From Sphingobacteriales bacterium JAD_PAG50586_3 (GTDB lineage Bacteria > Bacteroidota > Bacteroidia > CAMBQF01), in assembly GCA_023213195.1 (NCBI GenBank), contig CP096135.1, positions 946,616 to 1,010,615 on the forward strand: a stretch of 64,000 bases of DNA, given 5' to 3'. Positions within the stretch are counted from its first letter, which is position 1; each line of letters starts with the position of its first letter. A program made the translations under genes and the position numbers. Below are positions 49,231 to 63,722 of this stretch, piece by piece. Below the pieces are notes generated by a model. That model saw only the letters and a list, made by a program, of their open reading frames with translations, did no database searches and was not told where the DNA came from.

Positions 49231-50868
49231 ATGAATATACGTTTACTTCTGTTTCTTGCTTTACTTGGTGTTAGTGCCCGTTCTTTTAGTCAGTGTGCTG
49301 AAAATCCGCAGCCTAAGGTGCTGTTGGTGGGCGACTCGTGGGCGTTTTTTATGAGTGTTGACCAAACCATTAACACCGTGTTTAGCAAATGGGGCCACAG
49401 CGATTGCACCTTTTATACTAACATTACCCTTGCTGAAAACGGTGCCGAAACGGACGACTTTTTAACGCCTGCCAAGCAAAACGAGATTTTGGCTAAGCTG
49501 GATGAATACCCATCAATAGAATTCATCCACCTGAGTATTGGCGGAAACGATGCCCTGGGCGATTGGAACATTAACTACACCCAAGGCCAAACCGACACGC
49601 TGATTGAAGATATATCGCAACGGTTGTTAGATGTTATTACCTTTATTAAAACCGCCCGCCCCAACATTAAAGTGTTTTGGAGTGGCTATGTATACCCCAA
49701 TTTTGGTGAGGTTATAGAAACATCATTCTTAGGCGAAAACCACCCGTTTTTTGGTACGTGGGATGGTATGGGCCAGCCTACCTTTCAGCAGATTAATGAC
49801 ATTTTAAATGTATTCTCTCACCGTGCTGAGGTGTATGCCGATACAACAGACAATGTAGATTATGTTAGCTGCCCGGGTTTGTTGCAGTATACTTTTGGTC
49901 AGCCCGACCCGTTAGGGGTTGCCCCCGGTGGCAGCTATGCTGCTTTCACACAGCCTTTGCCCTTTGGCGACCCATCGTACCCATCGCCTAAAGAGTCTAT
50001 GCGCGATTATGGGCTTACCAAAGATTGTTTTCACCTTTCGCCGCGCGGCTACCGCGATTTTATTGGCTACCACACCCGCAAGTTTTATCACAAAGCCCTT
50101 ATGCACGATTTTTATGCCGTTGCCGATTCTATTGAGTTGAATGGCTCGCTAAGCGCCAATGGTAGCGTGTCTGACCTATTAAAGCTGGGCGAGTTGGATA
50201 GTGGCAATTATGCATCGCTGCTTACCTTTAACCTTGCCACTATGGCCGATACGGGCATTACCAAGGCATCGCTGTTCATTCGTCGTGAAGAGTTGGCGGG
50301 CGCAACACCGGTAAACGGTGCTATGCAGGTAAAAATAAAAGCAGGCTATTTTGGTGGTAGTATATTATTAGAAACAGCCGATTTGCTTGCCCAACCATCT
50401 ACCCAGGGCGCGCCCTGCATTTTTGGGGCTAACCAGGAAAATGGCGATTGGGTAAGGCTTGAGCTGCCTGAGTATTTCTACCCTTACCTGCAAACAGGCA
50501 ATACTGTACAGTTTATTCTGGAAGCACCAACAGCTACAGGGTCTATACTGTTTAGCAATGCTACAGAGCCTGATTTTGCCCCTGTTTTAGACATTACCTA
50601 CGGTCCTAAAACGGTTTCGGTGGTTGAGGTTAAAAATGATGTATTGGTTGATATATACCCAAACCCCACCACAGGCTTGCTAAACATAAATACTACATTG
50701 GATTTGACCAACACTACCATACAAATACACGATATTACCGGCAGGCTAATGCTAAGCACAGTATTAACGGGCACAACGGTTGATGTTGCTGCCTTACCTG
50801 CGGGCATATACTCGCTACAGCTAATAACCCCTAAGGGCACGTTTAATAAGAAGATTGTAAGGAATTAG
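49231..50868 (+). CDS. SGNH/GDSL-family hydrolase with a T9SS C-terminal sorting domain
   Basis: GDSWAFF block I. C-terminal …IYPNPTTGLLNI…IHDITGRLM…GIYSLQL… is a Por_Secre_tail. Confidence 0.65.
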   Translation: MNIRLLLFLALLGVSARSFSQCAENPQPKVLLVGDSWAFFMSVDQTINTVFSKWGHSDCTFYTNITLAENGAETDDFLTPAKQNEILAKLDEYPSIEFIHLSIGGNDALGDWNINYTQGQTDTLIEDISQRLLDVITFIKTARPNIKVFWSGYVYPNFGEVIETSFLGENHPFFGTWDGMGQPTFQQINDILNVFSHRAEVYADTTDNVDYVSCPGLLQYTFGQPDPLGVAPGGSYAAFTQPLPFGDPSYPSPKESMRDYGLTKDCFHLSPRGYRDFIGYHTRKFYHKALMHDFYAVADSIELNGSLSANGSVSDLLKLGELDSGNYASLLTFNLATMADTGITKASLFIRREELAGATPVNGAMQVKIKAGYFGGSILLETADLLAQPSTQGAPCIFGANQENGDWVRLELPEYFYPYLQTGNTVQFILEAPTATGSILFSNATEPDFAPVLDITYGPKTVSVVEVKNDVLVDIYPNPTTGLLNINTTLDLTNTTIQIHDITGRLMLSTVLTGTTVDVAALPAGIYSLQLITPKGTFNKKIVRN

Positions 50869-53559: not shown

Positions 53560-53830
53560 GGGTTGGTAATAAAGAAACTAATAATACTTGTAATAATAAC
53601 TTGCATTGGGTTGCCGCTAACAGCCCAGCGCTTTAGGGGCTTGCGCAGTAAAGGGGTTGGGCTGGGTGTAGGTATGTGCAATATCCTTTCCCCGGGCAAA
53701 CAACAACCGGCGAGCAACGTGGCGACCCACGTTATAACGATGTGTACATGACCATGATGTTTAATGTCAACATTATGATATTAGACGACAGGGGCCGCCG
53801 CCCTAAATTTTTTACCTGGGCCAGCCGTTT
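53560..53830 (+). pseudogene. remnant DUF6089 gene with an internal deletion (signal-peptide region fused to the last ~45 codons)
   Basis: …LPLTAQRFRGL… (matches the N-terminus of 53927 gene) and EQRGDPRYNDVYMTMMFNVNIMILDDRGRRPKFFTWASRF* (matches the C-terminus …EQRGDPRDKDVYMMLLFNVNYKLTDSRGRLPKFFSWASRF*). Confidence 0.5.
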
Positions 53831-53926
53831 TTAAGTTTATGCTTGATGCAGTAATGATTTAGCGAAAATTTAATGGTAAAATTTGGCTAAAGTTGTTATA
53901 TTTGTTCTCTAATTAGGCATAGAGTA

Positions 53927-54842
53927 TGAAAAAACTACTTCTTATAGCGGCAGTATTGTTAGGGCTTATGCCTTTGCAAGCGCAGCGTTTCAGGGGCTTA
54001 TGCAGCTAGAGGCAAGGTTGGGCGTAGGTACGTCTAACACCCTGTCTGAGCTGGGTGGGGCCAACCGCATTGGTACGCACTTTTACCGCGATTATGAAAT
54101 TGTTATGACCCGCCCTGCGGTTCATTTTGGTGTACGTTACTATATTCCTGAGTCGCGTTGGGCAGGCACCTTCAACATTGTTTATGCACGCGTTGCCGGT
54201 AGGGATAACCTTACCAAAGACCCATATCGCGAAAACCGCAACCTTAACTTCCGCTCTTATATTTTAGAGTTTTCAGTTCAGGGCGAGTATTATTTCCGCA
54301 AAAAACAAACCGGTGCACGTTATTCTATCCGCGAGGTAGTGGGTGCTAAACAGGTTAATATGGACTGGTACCTTTTTGGCGGTATTGGCGGGTTCTTTTT
54401 TAACCCAAAAGGCCAATATAATGGAAACTGGTATGCTTTGCAACCATTAAATACCGAAGGGCAGACATTGTTACCTACCCGTAAAAAATACAGCCGCTTT
54501 ACCGGTTGCATACCTTTGGGCCTTGGTGGCAAATACGGTATTAATAACCAAATAAGTGTTGGTTTTGAAGCCGGTTTCCGTTACACGTTTACTGATTATC
54601 TTGACGATGTTAGCACAACATACGTTGACCCTGCCGTATTAATTGGCGGCAACAGTCAGCTTTCTGCCACCCTTGCCGACCCTAGTCTGGGAACTGTTCC
54701 TAACCAAACAGGCATTGGAGAGCAGCGTGGCGACCCACGTGATAAAGACGTTTACATGATGCTTTTGTTTAACGTTAACTACAAACTAACAGATTCACGC
54801 GGCCGCCTTCCGAAATTTTTCTCGTGGGCAAGTCGCTTTTAA
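53927..54842 (+). CDS. DUF6089-family outer-membrane beta-barrel protein (frameshift near 53995)
   Basis: MKKLLLIAAVLLGLMPLQAQRFRG|MQLEARLGVGTSNTLSELGG… Paralogous to the next gene. …FTDYLDDVSTTY… shared motif. Confidence 0.6.
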
Positions 54843-54880
54843 TCCTAACTATTTTCAACTTTTTTGCGTTTAGGTTATTA

Positions 54881-55702
54881 ATGAGAAAGATAGCGTGCTC
54901 AATTATTCTTGCTTTATTGGTTGTATCTGTTCAGGCACAACGTTCGCAAGTGGGCCTTGTTGGTGGGGTTACCTACTACTTAGGAGATTTAAATCCCAAC
55001 AAACAGTTTTATAAAATAAAACCGGCAGGGGGTATATTCTACCGTTATAACATGAACCCGCGCATGGCCGTTAGGGGTAATATTATTTACGGCGGCATAG
55101 AGGCTAATGATGCCGACTCTAAAGACACCTTTGCTATAAACCGCAACCTTGCCTTTAAATCTATGTTGCTTGAGTTTTCGGGCTATTTCGAATTTAACTT
55201 TTTTAATTACATACTTGGCGACCCTCAATACCCTTTTACCCCTTACGTATTTGCAGGCGCGTCTATTTTCCGCTTTAACCCTAAGGCCGAATTAAATGGC
55301 GAAGAGTTTGCCTTACAGCCTTTGGGTACCGAAGGCCAGGGAACAACTGCCTACCCCGACAGGAAAAAATACTCGCTTACCAACCCATCGGTATTGTTTG
55401 GGGTGGGCTTAAAGTGGAACGTTTTCAGGGGCTTTGGTATGGGCTTGGAATGGGGCATGCGCCGCACCTTTACTGATTATCTGGATGATGTAAGTAAAAC
55501 CTATGCCGATGTGGCCGCCCTTTCAGCAGAAAACGGCCCCGATGCAGCAGCCCTTTCAGACCGCTCTGCCGACCCGGGTACTAATACAGACCGCCAGCGT
55601 GGCAATACCAAAACAAAAGATTGGTTCTCCTTTGCAGGTTTGTCAATAACATTCAATATAAAAGGCAAGCAATCGCAGTGCCCTGCATACCCTAATCATT
55701 AA
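54881..55702 (+). CDS. DUF6089-family outer-membrane beta-barrel protein (paralog)
   Basis: MRKIACSIILALLVVSVQAQRSQVGLVGGVTYYLGDLNP…FTDYLDDVSKTY…. Confidence 0.6.
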   Translation: MRKIACSIILALLVVSVQAQRSQVGLVGGVTYYLGDLNPNKQFYKIKPAGGIFYRYNMNPRMAVRGNIIYGGIEANDADSKDTFAINRNLAFKSMLLEFSGYFEFNFFNYILGDPQYPFTPYVFAGASIFRFNPKAELNGEEFALQPLGTEGQGTTAYPDRKKYSLTNPSVLFGVGLKWNVFRGFGMGLEWGMRRTFTDYLDDVSKTYADVAALSAENGPDAAALSDRSADPGTNTDRQRGNTKTKDWFSFAGLSITFNIKGKQSQCPAYPNH

Positions 55703-55716
55703 TACATTATTATAAG

Positions 55717-56481
55717 GTGGCAGAAGAAATCCTGAAAAGTAAAATTGTAAAAGATAAAGTACCTGCCCACGTAGCAGTAATAATGGATGGCAATGGCCGG
55801 TGGGCCAAACAGCGCGGCATGATGCGTGTGCTGGGTCATAAAAATGCAATTAAAGCCGTTAGGGATACTGTAGAAGCCGCTGCCGAACTGGGTGTTAAGC
55901 ACCTTACCATGTATGCTTTTTCTACTGAGAATTGGAACAGGCCTAAAATGGAGGTTGACGCTCTTATGGACCTTTTGGTATCTACCATACAAGGCGAAGT
56001 AAAAACCCTTAACCAGAATAAGATTAAGCTAAACGCCATTGGCGATATAGACAGCCTGCCCGTTAAAACCCGCAAAGAACTGTTAAAGGCTATAGACGAT
56101 ACCGCCGGTAATAACCACATGACGTTGCACCTGGCCCTTAGCTATAGCGGCCGCAGCGAGATTATGCGGGCTATTAAAAATATGATGTTTGATCTGGAAA
56201 GCAATAAAATTGAAAGGTCGGCGTTGAATGATGACTTGTTTGCACAGTACCTTTATACTGCCGGTATTCCCGACCCTGAGTTGCTTATACGCACCAGCGG
56301 AGAACACCGCATAAGTAACTTTTTACTGTGGCAAATGGCGTATACCGAGTTTTATTTTACTGAAAAACTATGGCCCGACTTTAGAAAGGCCGACTTTTTT
56401 GATGCTGTGCTAGACTACCAATCGCGCGAAAGGCGCTTTGGTAAAACCAGCGAGCAGGTGGACAAGAAAACCAAACCCTGA
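55717..56481 (+). CDS. uppS: isoprenyl transferase (undecaprenyl diphosphate synthase)
   Basis: HVAVIMDGNGRWA…YAFSTENW…ELLIRTSGE…RISNFLLWQ…. Confidence 0.9.
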   Translation: MAEEILKSKIVKDKVPAHVAVIMDGNGRWAKQRGMMRVLGHKNAIKAVRDTVEAAAELGVKHLTMYAFSTENWNRPKMEVDALMDLLVSTIQGEVKTLNQNKIKLNAIGDIDSLPVKTRKELLKAIDDTAGNNHMTLHLALSYSGRSEIMRAIKNMMFDLESNKIERSALNDDLFAQYLYTAGIPDPELLIRTSGEHRISNFLLWQMAYTEFYFTEKLWPDFRKADFFDAVLDYQSRERRFGKTSEQVDKKTKP

Positions 56482-56486
56482 TAAAT

Positions 56487-58944
56487 ATGCAGAGAACCAG
56501 ACAAACATGGTTGTTGCCTCTGCTAATTATTGTATTACACGCTTTACAGGCCGATGCCCAAACGCCTGTTGATTCTTTAAAACCCAATTACATTAACCCC
56601 ACCCAATATGAGGTTGGCGGCATTGATTTTGTTGGCCTTAAACGGCACAAGAAAGATGTGTTGCTGTCTATTATTGGCCTGCGCGTTGGCGACAAGGTAG
56701 AGGTGCCTAGCGAAAAGCTGGCCGACATTATTGACTACCTATGGAAACAAAACCTGTTTAGCGATATTAAACTCAACGTAGACAGCATTGTTGAGGGTAA
56801 GATTTACCTAGCTTTTCAGGTAGAGGAAATTGCCTACCAGGCCGGGCCGGTTAAGCTAAATGGCATTAGCAGGGCCGAAGCAAACAAGCTATCAACCAAA
56901 CTCAAACCCTATGCAACAGGCACTATTAGCCAACAGCATATTCTTTCCATAACCACCCTTATTACCAATTATTATAAAGATAAGGGGTATTACAACGTGT
57001 TTGTAAGTACCCGCCAACTGCCCGCAAAGGTTGATACCAATATGGTACAGCTTGTTGCTGATATTACAACAGGCCCAAGGGTAAAAATCAATAGTATAGA
57101 TATTGTGGGCAACAGGGCAGTGGCCGATACTAAGCTGCGCCGGGTGATGAAAGACACCAAAGAGCGGCGTTGGTTCAACATCTTTAAAACATCAAAATAC
57201 AATGCCGAAGCCTATACTAAAGATAAGCAGCGCATAATAGATTACTACAACCAACTGGGCCACCGCGATGCTGAGGTGGTTAAAGACAGTGTTTACCTGT
57301 TCAGCCCCAAGCGGTTAAACATCAGCATTACTATAGATGAGCATAAGGTATATTACTATGGCAATATAACATGGGTGGGCAACACCAAATACAGTACCGA
57401 TACCCTGAATCGTGTGCTGGGTATAAAGCCTGGCGAGGTGTACGACAAAAGCAAGCTGAACGAAGCCTTGTATATGAATGCTGCGGGAAACGATATTACA
57501 TCGCTATACATGGATAATGGCTACTTGTTTTTTAATGTAACACCAGTAGAGACAGGCCTTAATGGCGATAGTATTAACCTGGAGATGCACATTTACGAAG
57601 GGAAACCTGCCACCATTGGCGGCATAAGCATAAAAGGCAACACCCGCACGCAAGACCATGTAATTCTGCGTGAGGTATATACCAAGCCCGGCCAGTTATT
57701 TAAGCGCAGCGATATTATACTAAGCCAACAGGCATTAATACGGCTTGGCTATTTTAACCCCGAAGCCTTGCAGGTAAACCCCATACCCAATCCTGCAAAT
57801 GGCACTGTTGACATTGAATATGTGGTAGAAGAAAAACCCACCGACCAGATACAGCTATCGGGGGGCATTGCGGCGGGTAAAATTGTGGGTACACTGTCGT
57901 TGGTGATGAATAATTTTTCGTTTAAAAGCATAGGCAAAAAAGACCGATGGCAGCCGCTCCTTCTGGCGATGGGCAGCGAGTAGCATTAAGCGCGCAAAGC
58001 AACGGGGCCTCATTTCAATCGTACAGCCTTAGTGTAACAGAACCGTGGTTGGGTGGTAAAAAACCGAACTCGCTTACGGGCAATGTGTTGTACAACGCGC
58101 AACGGTACGATAGTAACCGAAAGTTTAGCGCCTTGGGTTTCACGGTAGGCTTGGGCAACCGCTGGAAAAAGCCCGATAACTTCTTCAGCTCGTTCTACAC
58201 CATCAACTTTTATAAATACAAGGCCGATAGCTTTCCCGGAATTGATTTTAATGGCGACAGGTACGATGTTAATGTGGGTGTAAGCGTATCGCGCAGTTCG
58301 TTAGATGGTAAGGATTATCCAATGGAAGGCTCATCGTTTACCCTGGGGTGCAGGCAACGCCTCCGTGGTCGGGCAGCAGGTCTTTTACCGCGCAAAACCC
58401 ACCCAAAATGGTAGAGTACCACAAATGGAATTTTGATGCCCTTTGGTACCAAAAAATAGTAGGCAAACTGGTATTTAAAGCATCAGCAGCCGTGGGGTAT
58501 TTGGGCTACTACAACAAAAAACTGGGCCTTGCGCCGGTAAACCGCTTTTATATGGGCGGGGTGCAACTGGCTGCAACCAGCTTTGTAGGGCAGGAGTACA
58601 TTAATATGCGGGGGTACGAGAATGGAAGCCTGTCGCCCACGGGAGGCAGTGCGCTATACAACCGTTTTGTGCTGGAACTGCGCCACCCTATTTTGCTAAA
58701 ACCCGAAGCCGGGGTTAGCATTTATGGCCTTGCCTTTGCCGAGGCGGGCAATGTGTGGAGTGGAGTAAAAGACTATAACCCATCGGTACTAAAACGTTCT
58801 GTCGGGGCGGGCGTTAGGGTGGTGGTGCCTATGTTTGGGCTTATTGGGGTAGATGCGGGCTATGGTTTCGACACAAAATCAATACCCGGATATAGTGGAA
58901 ACCCGTGGCAATTCCACTTTGTTATAGGGCGTGATATCAAATAA
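56487..58944 (+). CDS. bamA: outer membrane protein assembly factor BamA, copy 1 (three fragments, two single-G/T homopolymer frameshifts near 57950 and 58345)
   Basis: Signal peptide, POTRA repeats, C-terminal Omp85 barrel ending …NPWQFHFVIGRDIK. Confidence 0.8.
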
Positions 58945-59019
58945 AGCGTATTTTTGCAATATTTTTAAAAATTCTGCGTTTACCTAAACCGTAAAAGCAA
59001 CTGGAACACAAGCCATAGA

Positions 59020-61538
59020 GTGAAGAAATTATATACAGCGCCAAAGTATTTTAAACAAATAGTTTTAGGCCTTTTCCTTTTATTAACCGTAGGCGCAAAC
59101 GCCCAAATTACCATTGGTGGCGACTCTATTATTGTAGACTATGCCAGCCCTACAGAATATGAAATTGCGGCCATCACGGTAGATGGTGTTCAGTTTTACG
59201 ATAAAGGCATTATCGTAATGCTATCGGGCCTTAGCCATTGGCGATAAGATTGATATACCCGGTGATAAGCTTTCTACAGCCATTGAAAACCTTTGGAAAC
59301 AGGGCCTTTTCGGCAATATTGAAATTATAGCTGATAAAATAGAGGGCAAAAAAATATTCCTGCGCTTAAAACTGGAAGAAAGGCCGCGCCTATCAAGCTT
59401 CGCGTTTAAAGGCATACCCCGTTCTGAAGCCGATAAGCTGCGCGATAAGATTAAGCTGATACGTGACAAGGTGGTTAACGATGAGCTTATTATTTCTACC
59501 CAAAACCTGGTTAAAGAATATTACAGGGATAAAGGCTATTACGATGCCGAGGTTAACATTACCCAAACCCCCGATACCTCTAATGCCAACAAGGTTGTGC
59601 TTTTCATCAACGTAAAGCAAAACAACAAAATCAAGATTAATAAAATCAATATTATTGGCAACAGCATGGTGGCCGATGCCAAAATACGCCGCCAGTTAAA
59701 AGACACCAAAGAGAAAAAGTGGTACAGCCTGTTTTCTACCTCTAAGTTTATAGAGGAGAATTATAAAAAGGATAAGCAGAAGATAATTGACCTGTATAAC
59801 GAGCAGGGCTTTAGGGATGCTACCATTGTTAAAGACACCGTTTACCGTTACGATAATAAAACGCTGAACATTGATATTGTGGTAGAAGAAGGCCGTAAGT
59901 ACTACTTCCGCAACATTACATGGGTGGGCAATACCAAATACTCTTCAGACACACTTAACCGTGTATTGAACATTAAAAGGGGCGATGTTTATAACCAGGC
60001 TACCTTAGAGGGGGCCTTGTTCACCAGCCAAAACGGTACCGATGTATCATCGTTGTACATGGATATGGGTTACCTTTTCTTTAACGTTACCCCTGTAGAG
60101 GTTGCCGTAGTGGGCGACTCTATAGACTTTGAAATGCGCATGTACGAAGGCCGCCCTGCCACCATTAATAAGATTACCATTGTTGGCAACACCAAAACCA
60201 ACGACCATGTTATCCTGCGCGAGGTGCTAACCAAGCCGGGCCAGCTTTTCCGCAGGTCTGATATTATTTCAACACAGCGTTTCCTTGCACAGTTAGGCTA
60301 TTTTAACCCCGAGGCTTTGCAGGTAAACCCTAAGCCCGACCCTATAAACGGTACGGTTGATATTGAGTATGTGGTTGAAGAAAAACCATCAGACCAGATA
60401 GAACTTTCAGGTGGTTGGGGTGCAGGCCGTTTGGTAGGCACACTGGGTGTTACCTTCAACAACTTCTCGGCCCGCAATATGTTTAAAAAAGGCATGTGGC
60501 GCCCATTGCCTGCCGGCGATGGTCAGCGTTTATCAATCCGCGGCCAAACAAACGGTATCTTCTTCCAATCATACAACCTGTCGTTTACAGAGCGCTTGGT
60601 TAGGTGGGCGCAAGCCAAACTCATTAACGGTTTCTGTGTTCCATACAGCCCAGTCTAACGGCTACCCAAAATCTGATGTTAACCGTGTAGCCCTGCGTGT
60701 TACCGGAGCTACCATTGGCCTTGGTACACGTTGGAAACGCCCCGACAATTACTTCAACGCTTTTTACAGTGTTAACTTTCAGTACTACGATAACCAAAAG
60801 TATATATCAAGCATTTCAACAAAGTCGTACAGCGCCACGCTGGGCTTCTCGGTATCGCGTAACTCTATAGACCAGCCTATTTACCCACGCGAGGGGTCTA
60901 ACATATCACTATCTGTAAACGCCACACCACCATGGCCGTTGCGTGTTAACGATGGTAAGCTTGGCTTTAGGACATTTGGCGATGATAACGATGCCCGCTT
61001 TAAGTTTGTAGAATACCACAAGTGGAAACTGGATTTAACATGGTACCACGCCCTTGCAGGCAAATTGGTACTTAGCGCCCGTGCCCACTTAGGCTACTTG
61101 GGTTACTATAATAAAGATATTGGCACATCGTTGTTCGAGCGTTTCCAGGTAGGTGGCTCGGGCTTATCTAACTTTAACCTGGTAGGTACAGAAATTGTGG
61201 CCCTGCGTGGTTACCCTGATGGTAGCTTATCGCCTGCCAATAACCAGGGCAGCGCCATGTTCAACAGGTATATTTTAGAGTTGCGCTACCCTGTATCGCT
61301 AAACCCACAGGCTACAGTATTTGGCCTTGCATTTTTAGAGGGCGGCAACACGTGGGATAAAATACGCGACTTTAACCCCTTCAACATTAAACGCTCTGCC
61401 GGTGTTGGTGTAAGGGTGTTTTTACCCATGTTTGGTATGCTTGGTTTAGATTATGGCTATGGCTTTGATAAGATAGACCGCCTTGGCAGCACCCAGCAGC
61501 GTGGCAACATACACTTTATTATAGGCCAGCAGTTTTAA
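59020..61538 (+). CDS. BamA paralog, copy 2 (three fragments, frameshifts near 59240 and 60590)
   Basis: Same architecture. Long identical blocks with copy 1 (e.g. NITWVGNTKYS.DTLNRVL, GYLFFNVTPVE, GNTKTNDHVILREV.TKPGQLF.RSDII, GYFNPEALQVNP.P.P.NGTVDIEYVVEEKP.DQI.LSGG). Confidence 0.75.
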
Positions 61539-61660: not shown

Positions 61661-62245
61661 ATGAAAAGGATAATAGCCATTGTTTTTGCCCTGTTTTTAG
61701 CTTTAGGCTTAAACGCGCAAAAGTTTGCTTATGTAGACAGCCAATACATATTAGACAATATTCCCGATTATAAATCGGCACAGGCGCAGTTAGATAAATA
61801 CTCGCTGCAATGGCAAAAAGAAATACAGGCTAAGTTTGATGAGCTTGATAAGCTGTACAAAGACTTTCAGGCCGATGCTATTTTGCTTACCGAAGAGATG
61901 CGTAAAAAACGTGAAGACGAAATCTTAGATAAAGAAAAGCAAGCCAAAGAATTGCAAAAAAACCGCTTTGGTAAAGATGGCGACTTGTTTAAAAAACGCC
62001 AAGAGCTTGTAAAACCTATACAAGACAAGGTATACAATGCGCTAAAAGATTTTGCAACCACTAAAAACTACGCGGTAATCTTTGATAAATCAAGCGACTT
62101 AACAATTTTATACGCTAACCCTAAGTATGACATTAGCGATGAGATATTAGACGAAATGGGCTTTAAAAACACCAGCAGCGATGATAGTGGCTCTGGCAGC
62201 GGCGGCGGTACAGGCGGTGGCACTACCGGTGGCGATAAAAAATAA
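61661..62245 (+). CDS. OmpH/Skp-family periplasmic chaperone
   Basis: Signal peptide, coiled-coil OmpH profile. Gly/Ser-rich tail. Confidence 0.75.
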   Translation: MKRIIAIVFALFLALGLNAQKFAYVDSQYILDNIPDYKSAQAQLDKYSLQWQKEIQAKFDELDKLYKDFQADAILLTEEMRKKREDEILDKEKQAKELQKNRFGKDGDLFKKRQELVKPIQDKVYNALKDFATTKNYAVIFDKSSDLTILYANPKYDISDEILDEMGFKNTSSDDSGSGSGGGTGGGTTGGDKK

Positions 62246-62264: not shown

Positions 62265-62780
62265 ATGAAAAAGTTAGCAATAATAGCACTCCTTGCCCTA
62301 TCGGCACTCAACGTAAACGCACAGGTAAAAGCTAAGTACGGTTGGATTAACTCATCAGAGTTATTAGATATTATGCCTGAAAGGAAAAAGGCAGCAGTTT
62401 CTATAGACTCTATGGTTAAAGCCGAAGAAAGCATCATCAAAATATTGAATGATGATTACGAGTCGAAGCTTAAAAAGCTAAATACCGAGGCTGCCAAAAT
62501 GACCCCCGACCAACTGGCCCGTGCAAAAGACGAGTTAGCTAAAATTGAGGATGCTATTTACATGCAAACCCAAGGCGCACGAGATAAAGTACAAAAAAGG
62601 AGCAGGAACTGCTTAACCCTTTGTTAGATAAGGTATCTACCGCTATTAAAGATGTAGCTAAAGAAAACGGCTATACCTATGTGTTTGATATTAGCTTAGG
62701 CTAAGGCACTTGTTTACCCCGATGGCGACAACATGATTAAGCTGGTTAAGAAAAAACTGGGCTTGCCGGTAATGGACTAA
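62265..62780 (+). CDS. OmpH/Skp-family chaperone, second copy (frameshifts near 62600 and 62700)
   Basis: MKKLAIIALLALSALNVNAQVKAKYGWINSSELL… The C-terminus …YTYVFDISLG|ALVYPDGDNMIKLVKKKLGLPVMD* is split across frames. Confidence 0.65.
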
Positions 62781-62833
62781 CAAGCCTTTGTATGTAACAG
62801 ATCCTGAAACTAGTTCAGGATGACGTGAACAGG

Positions 62834-63620
62834 TTGAAAAAAGCGCACCTATAGGAATTTTTGATTCGGGTATTGGCGGCCTTACGGTTGCCGGTGCTAT
62901 TACCCGTGCTTTGCCTAACGAGAATACCATTTACTTTGGCGATACCGCCCACATGCCTTACGGCGATAAATCGCCGGAGTTGATTAAAAGGTACTCTACC
63001 CAAATAGCAGATTTTTTAGTGAGCAAAGGTTGTAAGGCCATTGTTATTGCCTGCAACACGGCGTCGGCACAAGCCTATAAAGAGGTTGTAGAGCATGTTA
63101 AGGGCGAAATACCTGTTATTAATGTTATAGACCCTGTAGCTGAATATATAGTAGGAAAATATCCCGCTAAAAAAATTGGTGTTATTGGTACCAAAGGCAC
63201 CATAGGCTCGGGCATTTACCCAAAAAAATTAAGAAGCTTAATAAAAGCGCCAATGTAACATCGTTGGCTACGCCTTTATTAGCACCAATGATAGAGGAAG
63301 GCTTTTTCAATAACAACATCAGCCGCACCATTATCAACTCTTATCTATCTAAAAAGAATATTGTAGATGCCGAGGTGGTAATACTTGCCTGCACGCATTA
63401 CCCTCTTATTAAGGCCGATATAATTAAGTTTTACGGCAAACGGGCCGATATTATAGACTCGTCAGACGTAGTAGCTGCTTACGTACAAAATGTGCTGCGT
63501 AAAAACGATTTGCTTACAACTGCCAAAACACCCGGTAAGCACGAGTTTTACGTAAGCGACTTTACCGAGAGCTTTGAGAAAAGCACCAAGCGCCTTTTTT
63601 GGCGAAAAAATAGACCTTAA
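62834..63620 (+). CDS. murI: glutamate racemase (frameshifts in A6 and A8 runs near 62840 and 63230)
   Basis: PIGIFDSGIGGLTVA…VIACNTASA… and …LACTHYPL… catalytic Cys motifs. N-terminus MKKSAPIGIF is recovered with one extra A. Confidence 0.75.
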
Positions 63621-63722
63621 AGAGGTTTTTCTGGGCAACTAAACGCACGTTTCTTACTTCTTTCGCTAGCGAATTCAATAAAACGCTAATTTTAAAACCT
63701 GCCCTGTGGGTTTGCATTATAC

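Follow-up and report, generated by a model that had tools for sequence, protein, structure and literature searches.

A diverged second bamA gene between uppS and the canonical bamA in a small lineage of AKYH767 Bacteroidota

At the core of outer-membrane protein (OMP) assembly stands BamA, which is essential and a current antibiotic target, and the β-barrel assembly machinery (BAM) of Bacteroidota has only recently been found to be built very differently from that of Escherichia coli. TamA and TamL, two further Omp85 proteins, are thought to derive from a duplication of BamA and to aid the assembly of subsets of OMPs; they carry three POTRA domains and act with TamB, and TamL is a lipoprotein. 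Here, we describe a 64,000-nucleotide stretch of DNA (the window; contig CP096135.1, positions 946,616 to 1,010,615) from Sphingobacteriales bacterium JAD_PAG50586_3, an uncultured freshwater member of the Bacteroidota order AKYH767, in which two bamA-type genes, termed copy 1 and copy 2, lie in tandem behind uppS. We suggest, with a probability of roughly 60%, that the locus holds a canonical bamA (copy 2) together with an old, lineage-restricted paralog (copy 1) that is placed between uppS and the bamA promoter and encodes a working, dispensable accessory BamA.

Additional genes of the BamA subfamily have been described before. Pseudomonas bamA2 and the paralogs of myxobacteria have been discussed as alternatives that serve regulation or specialisation on a subset of OMPs (Heinz & Lithgow 2014, PMC4104836). 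BamK of Klebsiella is clade-restricted and dispensable, binds the BAM lipoproteins BamBCDE, is able to replace BamA and is silent unless BaeSR is activated (PMC13059784). BamA paralogs are thus already documented, and copy 1 adds a case from Bacteroidota; our literature searches returned no report of a tandem bamA pair in this phylum, and two structural papers of 2025 on Bacteroidota BAM do not mention a second full-length BamA. Among the described proteins, BamK is the closest analogue of copy 1, and we return to it below.

Between 53 and 64 kb, the open reading frames (ORFs) of the window comprise, on the + strand, two DUF6089-type genes, uppS, a series of BamA-like ORF fragments, two OmpH/skp genes and a split murI. 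Five BamA-like fragments are present in the ORF listing and a short sixth appears only with a lower length cut-off; translation in three frames assigns all of them to two genes. A previous inspection of the DNA without database searches (the sequence-only reading) had proposed two full-length BamA-type genes of about 820 and 840 residues, back to back behind uppS. The tandem arrangement is confirmed, as are the two skp/OmpH genes and murI that follow it, and the corrected proteins have 819 and 838 residues. The features at the centre of the locus are as follows.

55717-56481, + strand: uppS (undecaprenyl-diphosphate synthase), a 254-residue ORF with 94% identity to the Prenyltransf gene of the closest relative, L001.
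56487-58944, + strand: copy 1, the putative accessory BamA paralog, 819 residues once frameshift-corrected, stitched from ORF fragments.
58949-58956, + strand: TATTTTTG, a match to TAnnTTTG within the 75-nt spacer between the copies, 71 nt 5' of the start of copy 2.
59020-61538, + strand: copy 2, the canonical bamA, 838 residues once frameshift-corrected, with a GTG start and the C-terminus ...IIGQQF.

Both copies have the complete make-up of a BamA, namely a signal peptide, five POTRA domains, a 16-strand barrel and the RGY motif of loop L6. All family scores were computed on the frameshift-corrected translations. Both score above the cut-off (297.15 bits) of the BamA equivalog TIGR03303 (copy 1: 321.6 bits, copy 2: 330.1 bits), and the Pfam POTRA family recognises five segments of copy 1 and four of copy 2, the latter with weak POTRA_1 and TamA-POTRA matches besides. 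The barrel family PF01103 is not reported for either copy at E ≤ 0.01, which is also the case for many Bacteroidia BamAs. The N-termini resemble signal peptides by eye (copy 1: MQRT..LQADAQ, copy 2: MKKL..VGANAQ). The AlphaFold2 model of an intact copy-1 ortholog (P0001, 86% identical to copy 1) has a mean predicted local distance difference test (pLDDT) score of 84.6 and shows five β-α-α-β-β POTRA units before residue 450, followed by 16 barrel strands. The signal peptide, POTRA region and Omp85 barrel claimed for each copy agree with these results. The BamAs of Flavobacterium johnsoniae (9n2d-f) and Bacteroides thetaiotaomicron (9hj3/9hiv) are the best matches in both sequence and fold, the latter from a comparison of the P0001 model with the PDB. 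With these proteins, the two copies share five POTRA domains and 16 strands, the extended periplasmic turn T1 of 19 residues that is typical of Bacteroidota BamA, and the L6 motif (L/M)RGY, of the more general (V/I/L)RG(F/Y) type (NMRGY in copy 1, ALRGY in copy 2). They are 50-80 residues shorter than these proteins, and neither copy has a counterpart of the Tyr-rich EL3 (38 residues) of the B. thetaiotaomicron BamA or of the L5 platform (76 residues) found in F. johnsoniae.

We also considered whether either copy could be a TamA or TamL. This identity is ruled out by the five POTRA domains, by the absence of a lipobox cysteine near the signal-peptide cleavage region of either copy, and by scores far below the cut-offs: the copies reach 39-45 bits with TamL (cut-off 400 bits; copy 1: 39.3 bits), and with TamA copy 1 gives no match at E ≤ 0.001 and copy 2 gives 68 bits (cut-off 625 bits).

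As deposited, neither copy is a single ORF. Each is broken into three by two single-base insertions or deletions (indels): copy 1 lacks one nucleotide at about 57959 and another at about 58348, and copy 2 has one too many at about 59233 and again at about 60594; the genes proposed as full length by the sequence-only reading are so after correction and not as given. The state of both genes, each in three ORFs, together with the NCBI annotation of the first 498-residue piece of copy 1 as a hypothetical protein, could be taken to mean that one or both are real pseudogenes with genuine frameshifts and that this genome is in the course of losing the extra copy; one relative is without copy 1 (below), which shows that such loss happens. 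We find this explanation hardly credible in view of the following observations. In a DNA alignment with L001 covering 50.8-63.7 kb of the window (about 13 kb), there are 11 single-base coding indels (51112, 51221, 53993, 57959, 58348, 59233, 60594, 62593, 62703, 63219, and 63591), two each in copy 1, copy 2, the second skp gene, murI and a radical-SAM gene and one in a DUF6089 gene. Identity to the intact orthologous proteins stays high on either side of every shift, and the stitched frames of both copies contain no internal stops. The same genes are intact in four to five independent, short-read assemblies of relatives (the murI orthologs, for example, are intact at 269 residues in L001, L002, L004, and L005). 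The genome itself was announced as a circular metagenome-assembled genome (MAG) of 4.16 Mb that belongs to the uncultivated order AKYH767; it came from an amoeba culture of Lake Zurich origin and was assembled with Flye from Nanopore R9.4.1 reads, and the announcement reports no polishing step (PMC9583780). Because the shifts are spread over both copies and their neighbours in an unpolished Nanopore genome, and because the genes are intact in relatives, the frameshifts in the window are most likely sequencing or assembly errors. The idea that one of the copies is a degraded pseudogene does not apply, since both copies and the neighbouring housekeeping genes are affected alike.

Several of the indels lie outside homopolymers, in or beside CCTGG/GCGC-like contexts (CC-TGG read as CCTTGG, for example), which is reminiscent of the basecalling errors at methylation motifs in R9.4.1 Nanopore data. 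Many further adjacent or overlapping ORF pairs on the same strand are found elsewhere in the window (for example 9821-10873/10785-11228, 16033-16473/16428-17579, and 20693-20995/20959-22137) and suggest that the same indel problem is genome-wide. Both bamA genes are mis-annotated as fragments in this genome, and automated pipelines would miss the pair.

Several lines of evidence identify copy 2 as the canonical bamA. It is closer than copy 1 to the structurally characterised BamAs (B. thetaiotaomicron BamA, 9hj3: 720 against 522 bits; F. johnsoniae BamA: 660 against 518 bits) and to the resident BamA at 79 GTDB species loci (48-56% against 39-46% identity), it is better conserved among relatives, and it shares an upstream element with loci that have a single bamA. 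It fills the ancestral uppS-bamA-skp slot, with copy 1 intercalated between uppS and the upstream element. The original copy was told from the extra one by conservation and synteny in Pseudomonas and in myxobacteria as well. The consensus of the Bacteroidota -7 promoter element is TAnnTTTG; the match, TATTTTTG, was located by hand, and its promoter activity is our reading of that match. We presume it to be the ancestral bamA promoter. The motif and its flank stand at the same distance from copy 2 in all five close relatives (L001-L005) and also precede the single bamA of two sister lineages (L085 and L088). The element reads TA(T/C)TTTTG(C)GCAATA(A/T)TTT...GCGTTTA (window 58945-59019, L085:930-1040, L088:600-705), and its conservation across lineages whose BamA is only about 75% identical is unusually strong for intergenic DNA, which suggests a promoter together with a regulatory element or an element of the 5' untranslated region. 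A scan for sigma-70 promoters and terminators gave counts equal to those of shuffled sequence, with a model that is not one of Bacteroidota promoters. Copy 2 is thus the canonical, presumably essential bamA and has kept its own promoter-like element. Copy 1, in turn, starts 5 nt past the stop codon of uppS and 5' of the promoter of copy 2, so that it is probably co-transcribed with uppS.

The two copies are 50% identical in protein sequence over their full length. At the nucleotide level, the segments that align best are about 66% identical, and exact matches reach 17 nt at most. The long identical stretches noted earlier therefore exist at the protein level, in runs of up to 14 residues such as NGTVDIEYVVEEKP, and not in the DNA. 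Identity varies along the periplasmic region (POTRA1: 38%, POTRA2: 31%, POTRA3: 55%, POTRA4: 63%, POTRA5: 78%) and is 51% in the barrel. When copy 2 is compared with 104 other Bacteroidia BamAs, the corresponding values are 52, 45, 51, 64, 73 and 54%. The gradient between the copies is thus largely the general Bacteroidia BamA pattern, and only POTRA1-2 have diverged beyond it. The contrast between conserved POTRA4-5 and diverged POTRA1-2 that had been proposed is real when measured by domain, but it is mostly the common BamA pattern except for POTRA1-2; the barrel, for which long identical stretches had been noted as well, is close to the level of ordinary orthologs. Within the barrel, the extracellular loops other than L6 are 33% identical, L6 49%, the strands 52% and the periplasmic turns 65-75%. 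Two loops are shorter in copy 1, namely L3 (2 residues as opposed to 8) and L5 (19-28 as opposed to 31). We considered a concentration of divergence in the extracellular loops, the signature of an arms race, and rejected it: the order of loops, strands and turns is that of ordinary orthologs at similar distance, with no excess in the loops.

A search with copy 1 recovered full-length homologs with 86, 75, 75, and 59% identity, one with 50% identity (P0006), and after these canonical BamAs. The four close homologs all lie in uppS-copy 1-copy 2-skp-skp(-murI) loci in which both genes are intact (L001-L004; copy 1 813-824 residues), and copy 2 is intact in these and in L005 (838-853 residues). 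P0006 carries the copy-1 signatures GGI(A/G)AG, GGVQLA and IPGY and a C-terminus without the final Phe. A C-terminal fragment nearly identical to it stands directly 5' of the canonical copy (82% identity) in L169, from which it follows that the tandem pair reaches a deeper lineage. In total, the pair co-diverges in no fewer than six genomes, with differences of up to 17-18% between their canonical copies. Among the matches listed, copy 1 occurs only in the window, in L001-L004 (intact) and in L169/P0006 (partial); the sister lineages, with canonical copies 73-76% or 60-61% identical, have a single bamA. No second BamA is present within about 5-6 kb of bamA at any of the 164 other Bacteroidota loci among the matches listed, which agrees with the expectation of a single bamA as the norm in this group. 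Likewise, a scan of metagenome contigs with patterns common to all BamAs found only canonical BamAs (≤46% identity) and no new copy-1 locus among the matches listed; its 80 loci served as further single-bamA controls. A copy-1 profile run against 1.84 billion representatives clustered at 50% identity found one member of the family (P0001, 1639 bits), with the next match at 867 bits. The second, diverged copy inside the uppS-bamA-skp-skp-murI block, the central claim of the sequence-only reading, is therefore genuine. As for the caveat raised with it, that relatives might commonly carry both copies under known distinct annotations, both copies do occur together, within a very small clade only, and no copy there has a distinct annotation.

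Copy 1 is maintained under purifying selection in the relatives, yet it changes faster than copy 2. In the same pairs of genomes, copy 1 is 86/75/75/59% identical and copy 2 is 95/90/88/85% identical; compared with the L169 lineage, the values are about 50% (copy 1, to P0006) and 82-83% (copy 2). The copy-1 protein thus changes about 2.5-4 times faster. The ratio of nonsynonymous to synonymous substitution rates (dN/dS, Nei-Gojobori) spans 0.11-0.19 in copy 1 as opposed to 0.07-0.09 in copy 2, and dN of copy 1 is 2.3-2.9 times that of copy 2; as dS is near or above 1, the ratios are rough, though clearly well under 1. Among copy-1 orthologs, POTRA1-3 change as fast as the barrel or faster. The sub-functionalisation proposed earlier fits this divergence under purifying selection as functional diversification in a general way.

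The duplication is old, given the 50% protein identity and the lack of any exact DNA match longer than 17 nt. A recent duplication (also put forward by the sequence-only reading), gene conversion and an assembly duplication were each rejected on these figures and on the independent assemblies in which the pair co-diverges. Simple arithmetic with the identities and a 3.5-fold rate difference places the duplication at about the split from the single-copy sister lineage. Foreign origin, in which an unsampled lineage would have supplied copy 1 by horizontal transfer to a site beside bamA, has two observations in its favour. A midpoint-rooted neighbour-joining tree sets the long-branched copy-1 clade outside the canonical clade of its own lineage, and the count of derived states shared with the narrow copy-2 clade is not positive (2 against 6 sites). 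A long branch is, however, expected from the fast rate of copy 1, and we left this tree, which the branch distorts, out of the dating. Within its own broad lineage, copy 1 is 48-54% identical to the canonical copies, and no other Bacteroidia BamA exceeds 47%; copy 1 has 21 states in common with that lineage and nine with the rest, the copy-1 and copy-2 trees are broadly congruent, and the rate-based date falls at about the split from the single-copy sisters. A tandem duplication also accounts more simply for a copy placed exactly between uppS and the promoter of bamA. Transfer is therefore very unlikely in our judgement, and the comparisons support an origin of copy 1 within the broader lineage, by a bamA duplication in the ancestor of a small AKYH767 sub-lineage. 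In its age and tandem position, copy 1 differs from Pseudomonas bamA2, which is very recent, highly similar to its parent and at another locus; it differs from the myxobacterial paralogs, which vary in POTRA number and some of which resemble outside sequences, in keeping five POTRA domains and co-diverging with its partner.

L005, the only close GTDB species representative among the matches listed, has lost copy 1. Its canonical copy is 91% identical to that of the window, and the flanks match the DNA of L002 at 91-94% identity. After uppS there is a 268-bp spacer and then the normal promoter element and copy 2. The spacer consists of the first ~105 nt of copy 1, with the start codon and signal peptide, ~55 nt of other sequence and the last ~40 nt; 38 codons of copy 1 remain. 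We read this as an in-situ deletion of about 2.3 kb, which would make copy 1 dispensable in one natural lineage or more. On its downstream side, the scar is bounded by the same relic sequence that is found in L002. This relic, of about 40 nt just past the copy-1 stop in L002 (L002:10443-10560), repeats the 3' end of the gene (TGGCAATTCCACGTTATTATTGGGGTTGATATTAAATAA) and suggests a small duplication or replacement of that end.

Taking these results together, we suggest that copy 1 is a functional but accessory second β-barrel insertase: functional, in view of the purifying selection and complete architecture, and accessory, as it evolves fast and is sometimes lost. It would dock on the same BamD-containing machinery as copy 2 through the conserved POTRA4-5 (63 and 78% identity) and would work by the lateral-gate templating (β-augmentation) mechanism of BamA. 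The differences would lie at POTRA1-2 (31-38%), where substrate/chaperone hand-over takes place in the periplasm and where, in F. johnsoniae, BamP contacts POTRA1 (PMC12611786), and at the extracellular loops (33%; L3 and L5 shortened), where surface partners or attackers act, so that copy 1 would offer the cell either a range of special clients or an alternative core with a distinct surface. Copy 1 would be expressed with uppS and copy 2 from its own promoter.

Several points weigh against this reading. BamD binding and insertase activity of copy 1 are deduced from conservation, the frameshifts are probable and not proven errors, and the loss in L005 is seen on one short-read MAG contig. The domain and loop gradients largely mirror ordinary ortholog divergence and so do not by themselves demonstrate specialisation. 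In addition, of 265 positions with conservation of 90% or more among canonical Bacteroidia BamAs, the copy-1 family replaces 36 (six of the 13 such positions in POTRA2), with a cluster in helix 2 of POTRA5 (R420Q, E421A, Q424R) and others near β1 (E461Q/T, G467A, F479M); partner binding or the behaviour of the gate could therefore differ in copy 1. Copy 1 ends in ...IG(K/R)DIK and lacks the ...IGQQF of copy 2. We do not regard the missing C-terminal Phe as more than a weak hallmark of copy 1, since 30 of 118 canonical sequences lack it too.

The resemblance to BamK raises a second explanation, which overlaps with ours and differs only in what selection maintains: copy 1 may be equivalent to BamA and kept as a surface-distinct back-up against phages, bacteriocins or peptides directed at the exposed loops or the gate of the canonical BamA, and not as an insertase with clients of its own. 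Like BamK, copy 1 is a clade-restricted paralog with the full BamA architecture that arose by bamA duplication; both have diverged substantially from the resident BamA (63% identity for BamK, 50% here), especially in the extracellular loops, and BamK is dispensable in the laboratory as copy 1 is naturally deleted in L005. The low identity of the loops other than L6, the shortened L3 and L5 and the fast evolution and apparent dispensability of copy 1 would all suit a spare, and BamK provides a precedent in which a divergent surface goes with resistance to a BamA-targeting macrocycle (PMC13059784). Bacteroidetocins and lectin-like bacteriocins are also known to target BamA. On the other hand, the most diverged parts of copy 1 are the periplasmic POTRA1-2 and not the surface, POTRA1-3 of its orthologs change no more slowly than the barrel, and the loop, strand and turn gradient equals that of ordinary orthologs. 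The 5-nt gap to uppS leaves no room for a separate, stress-responsive promoter, which argues for constitutive co-expression and against a silent spare. The parallel has further limits: the binding, replacement and regulation of BamK have been shown, and copy 1 is known here from its sequence; copy 1 is in tandem, 3' of uppS and 5' of the promoter that serves the canonical bamA; copy 1 has diverged further than BamK, with an extra measure in POTRA1-2; and the Bacteroidota BAM has other subunits (BamG, BamH, and others). We consider a BamK-like back-up unlikely but a serious possibility. Because copy 1 is so closely coupled to uppS and has diverged strongly in its periplasmic part, we lean slightly towards a constitutively expressed, specialised variant.

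A stronger form of specialisation is neofunctionalisation, in which copy 1 would share BamD with copy 2 and, through its remodelled POTRA1-2 and shortened L3 and L5, assemble a class of clients of its own or recruit other accessory subunits specific to Bacteroidota, giving two differently equipped BAM machines from one operon region. We think it rather improbable that the divergence goes this far; if it did, copy 1 would be a natural system for the study of BamA client and partner specificity in Bacteroidota. On the preferred reading of an accessory BamA, a gene that has been kept for long, evolves faster and can be lost serves as a natural experiment in how far the different parts of BamA may change: POTRA1-2 and the surface loops vary, and POTRA4-5 and the periplasmic turns do not. 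BamA paralogs also bear on resistance to agents that target BamA.

The remaining genes of the locus are as follows.

~53926-54842 and 54824-55702, + strand: two DUF6089-type β-barrel genes, located by tblastn of L001 DUF6089c and DUF6089d (95% and 93% identity), the first with a 1-nt frameshift near 53993.
61661-62245, + strand: skp/OmpH 1, a 194-residue ORF with 95% identity to the L001 OmpH gene.
62265-62780, + strand: skp/OmpH 2, located by tblastn of the 171-residue L001 OmpH, with indels at ~62593 and ~62703.
62833-63640 (3' end approximate), + strand: murI (glutamate racemase), located by tblastn of L001 MurI in two frames, with indels at ~63219 and ~63591.

Pfam DUF6089 is found on orthologs of the two DUF6089-type genes. 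The array of these genes upstream of uppS (L001:3457-7215) has four members in L001, three in L004, and two in the window, L002, and L003. Of one extra DUF6089 copy, the window retains 47 C-terminal codons (87% identity) at 53691-53831, next to two gaps, of 658 and 888 bp, in the comparison with L001. We asked whether DUF6089 copy number is tied to copy 1 and rejected the idea: genomes with the pair have two to four such genes, and they are also present upstream of uppS in L086, a relative with a single bamA. The more specific suggestion of the sequence-only reading, an insertase devoted to T9SS or DUF6089 barrels, finds no support in these data.

In the more distant single-bamA lineage of L086 and L087 (L086:2190-5418, L087:1169-4397; P0016, with 60-61% identity to copy 2), bamA overlaps the stop codon of uppS, and a transglutaminase-core gene and a radical-SAM/TRAM gene follow it in place of skp-skp-murI. 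The uppS-bamA-skp-skp-murI block is therefore not universal even near the copy-1 clade. Genes with a Por_Secre_tail, the C-terminal sorting domain of the type IX secretion system, lie within a few kb of the locus in relatives (L002:2189-3823, for example); judged by position, the counterpart in the window is probably the 545-residue ORF at 49231-50868. L002 has an additional Por_Secre_tail gene between murI and asnS (L002:15227-16294).

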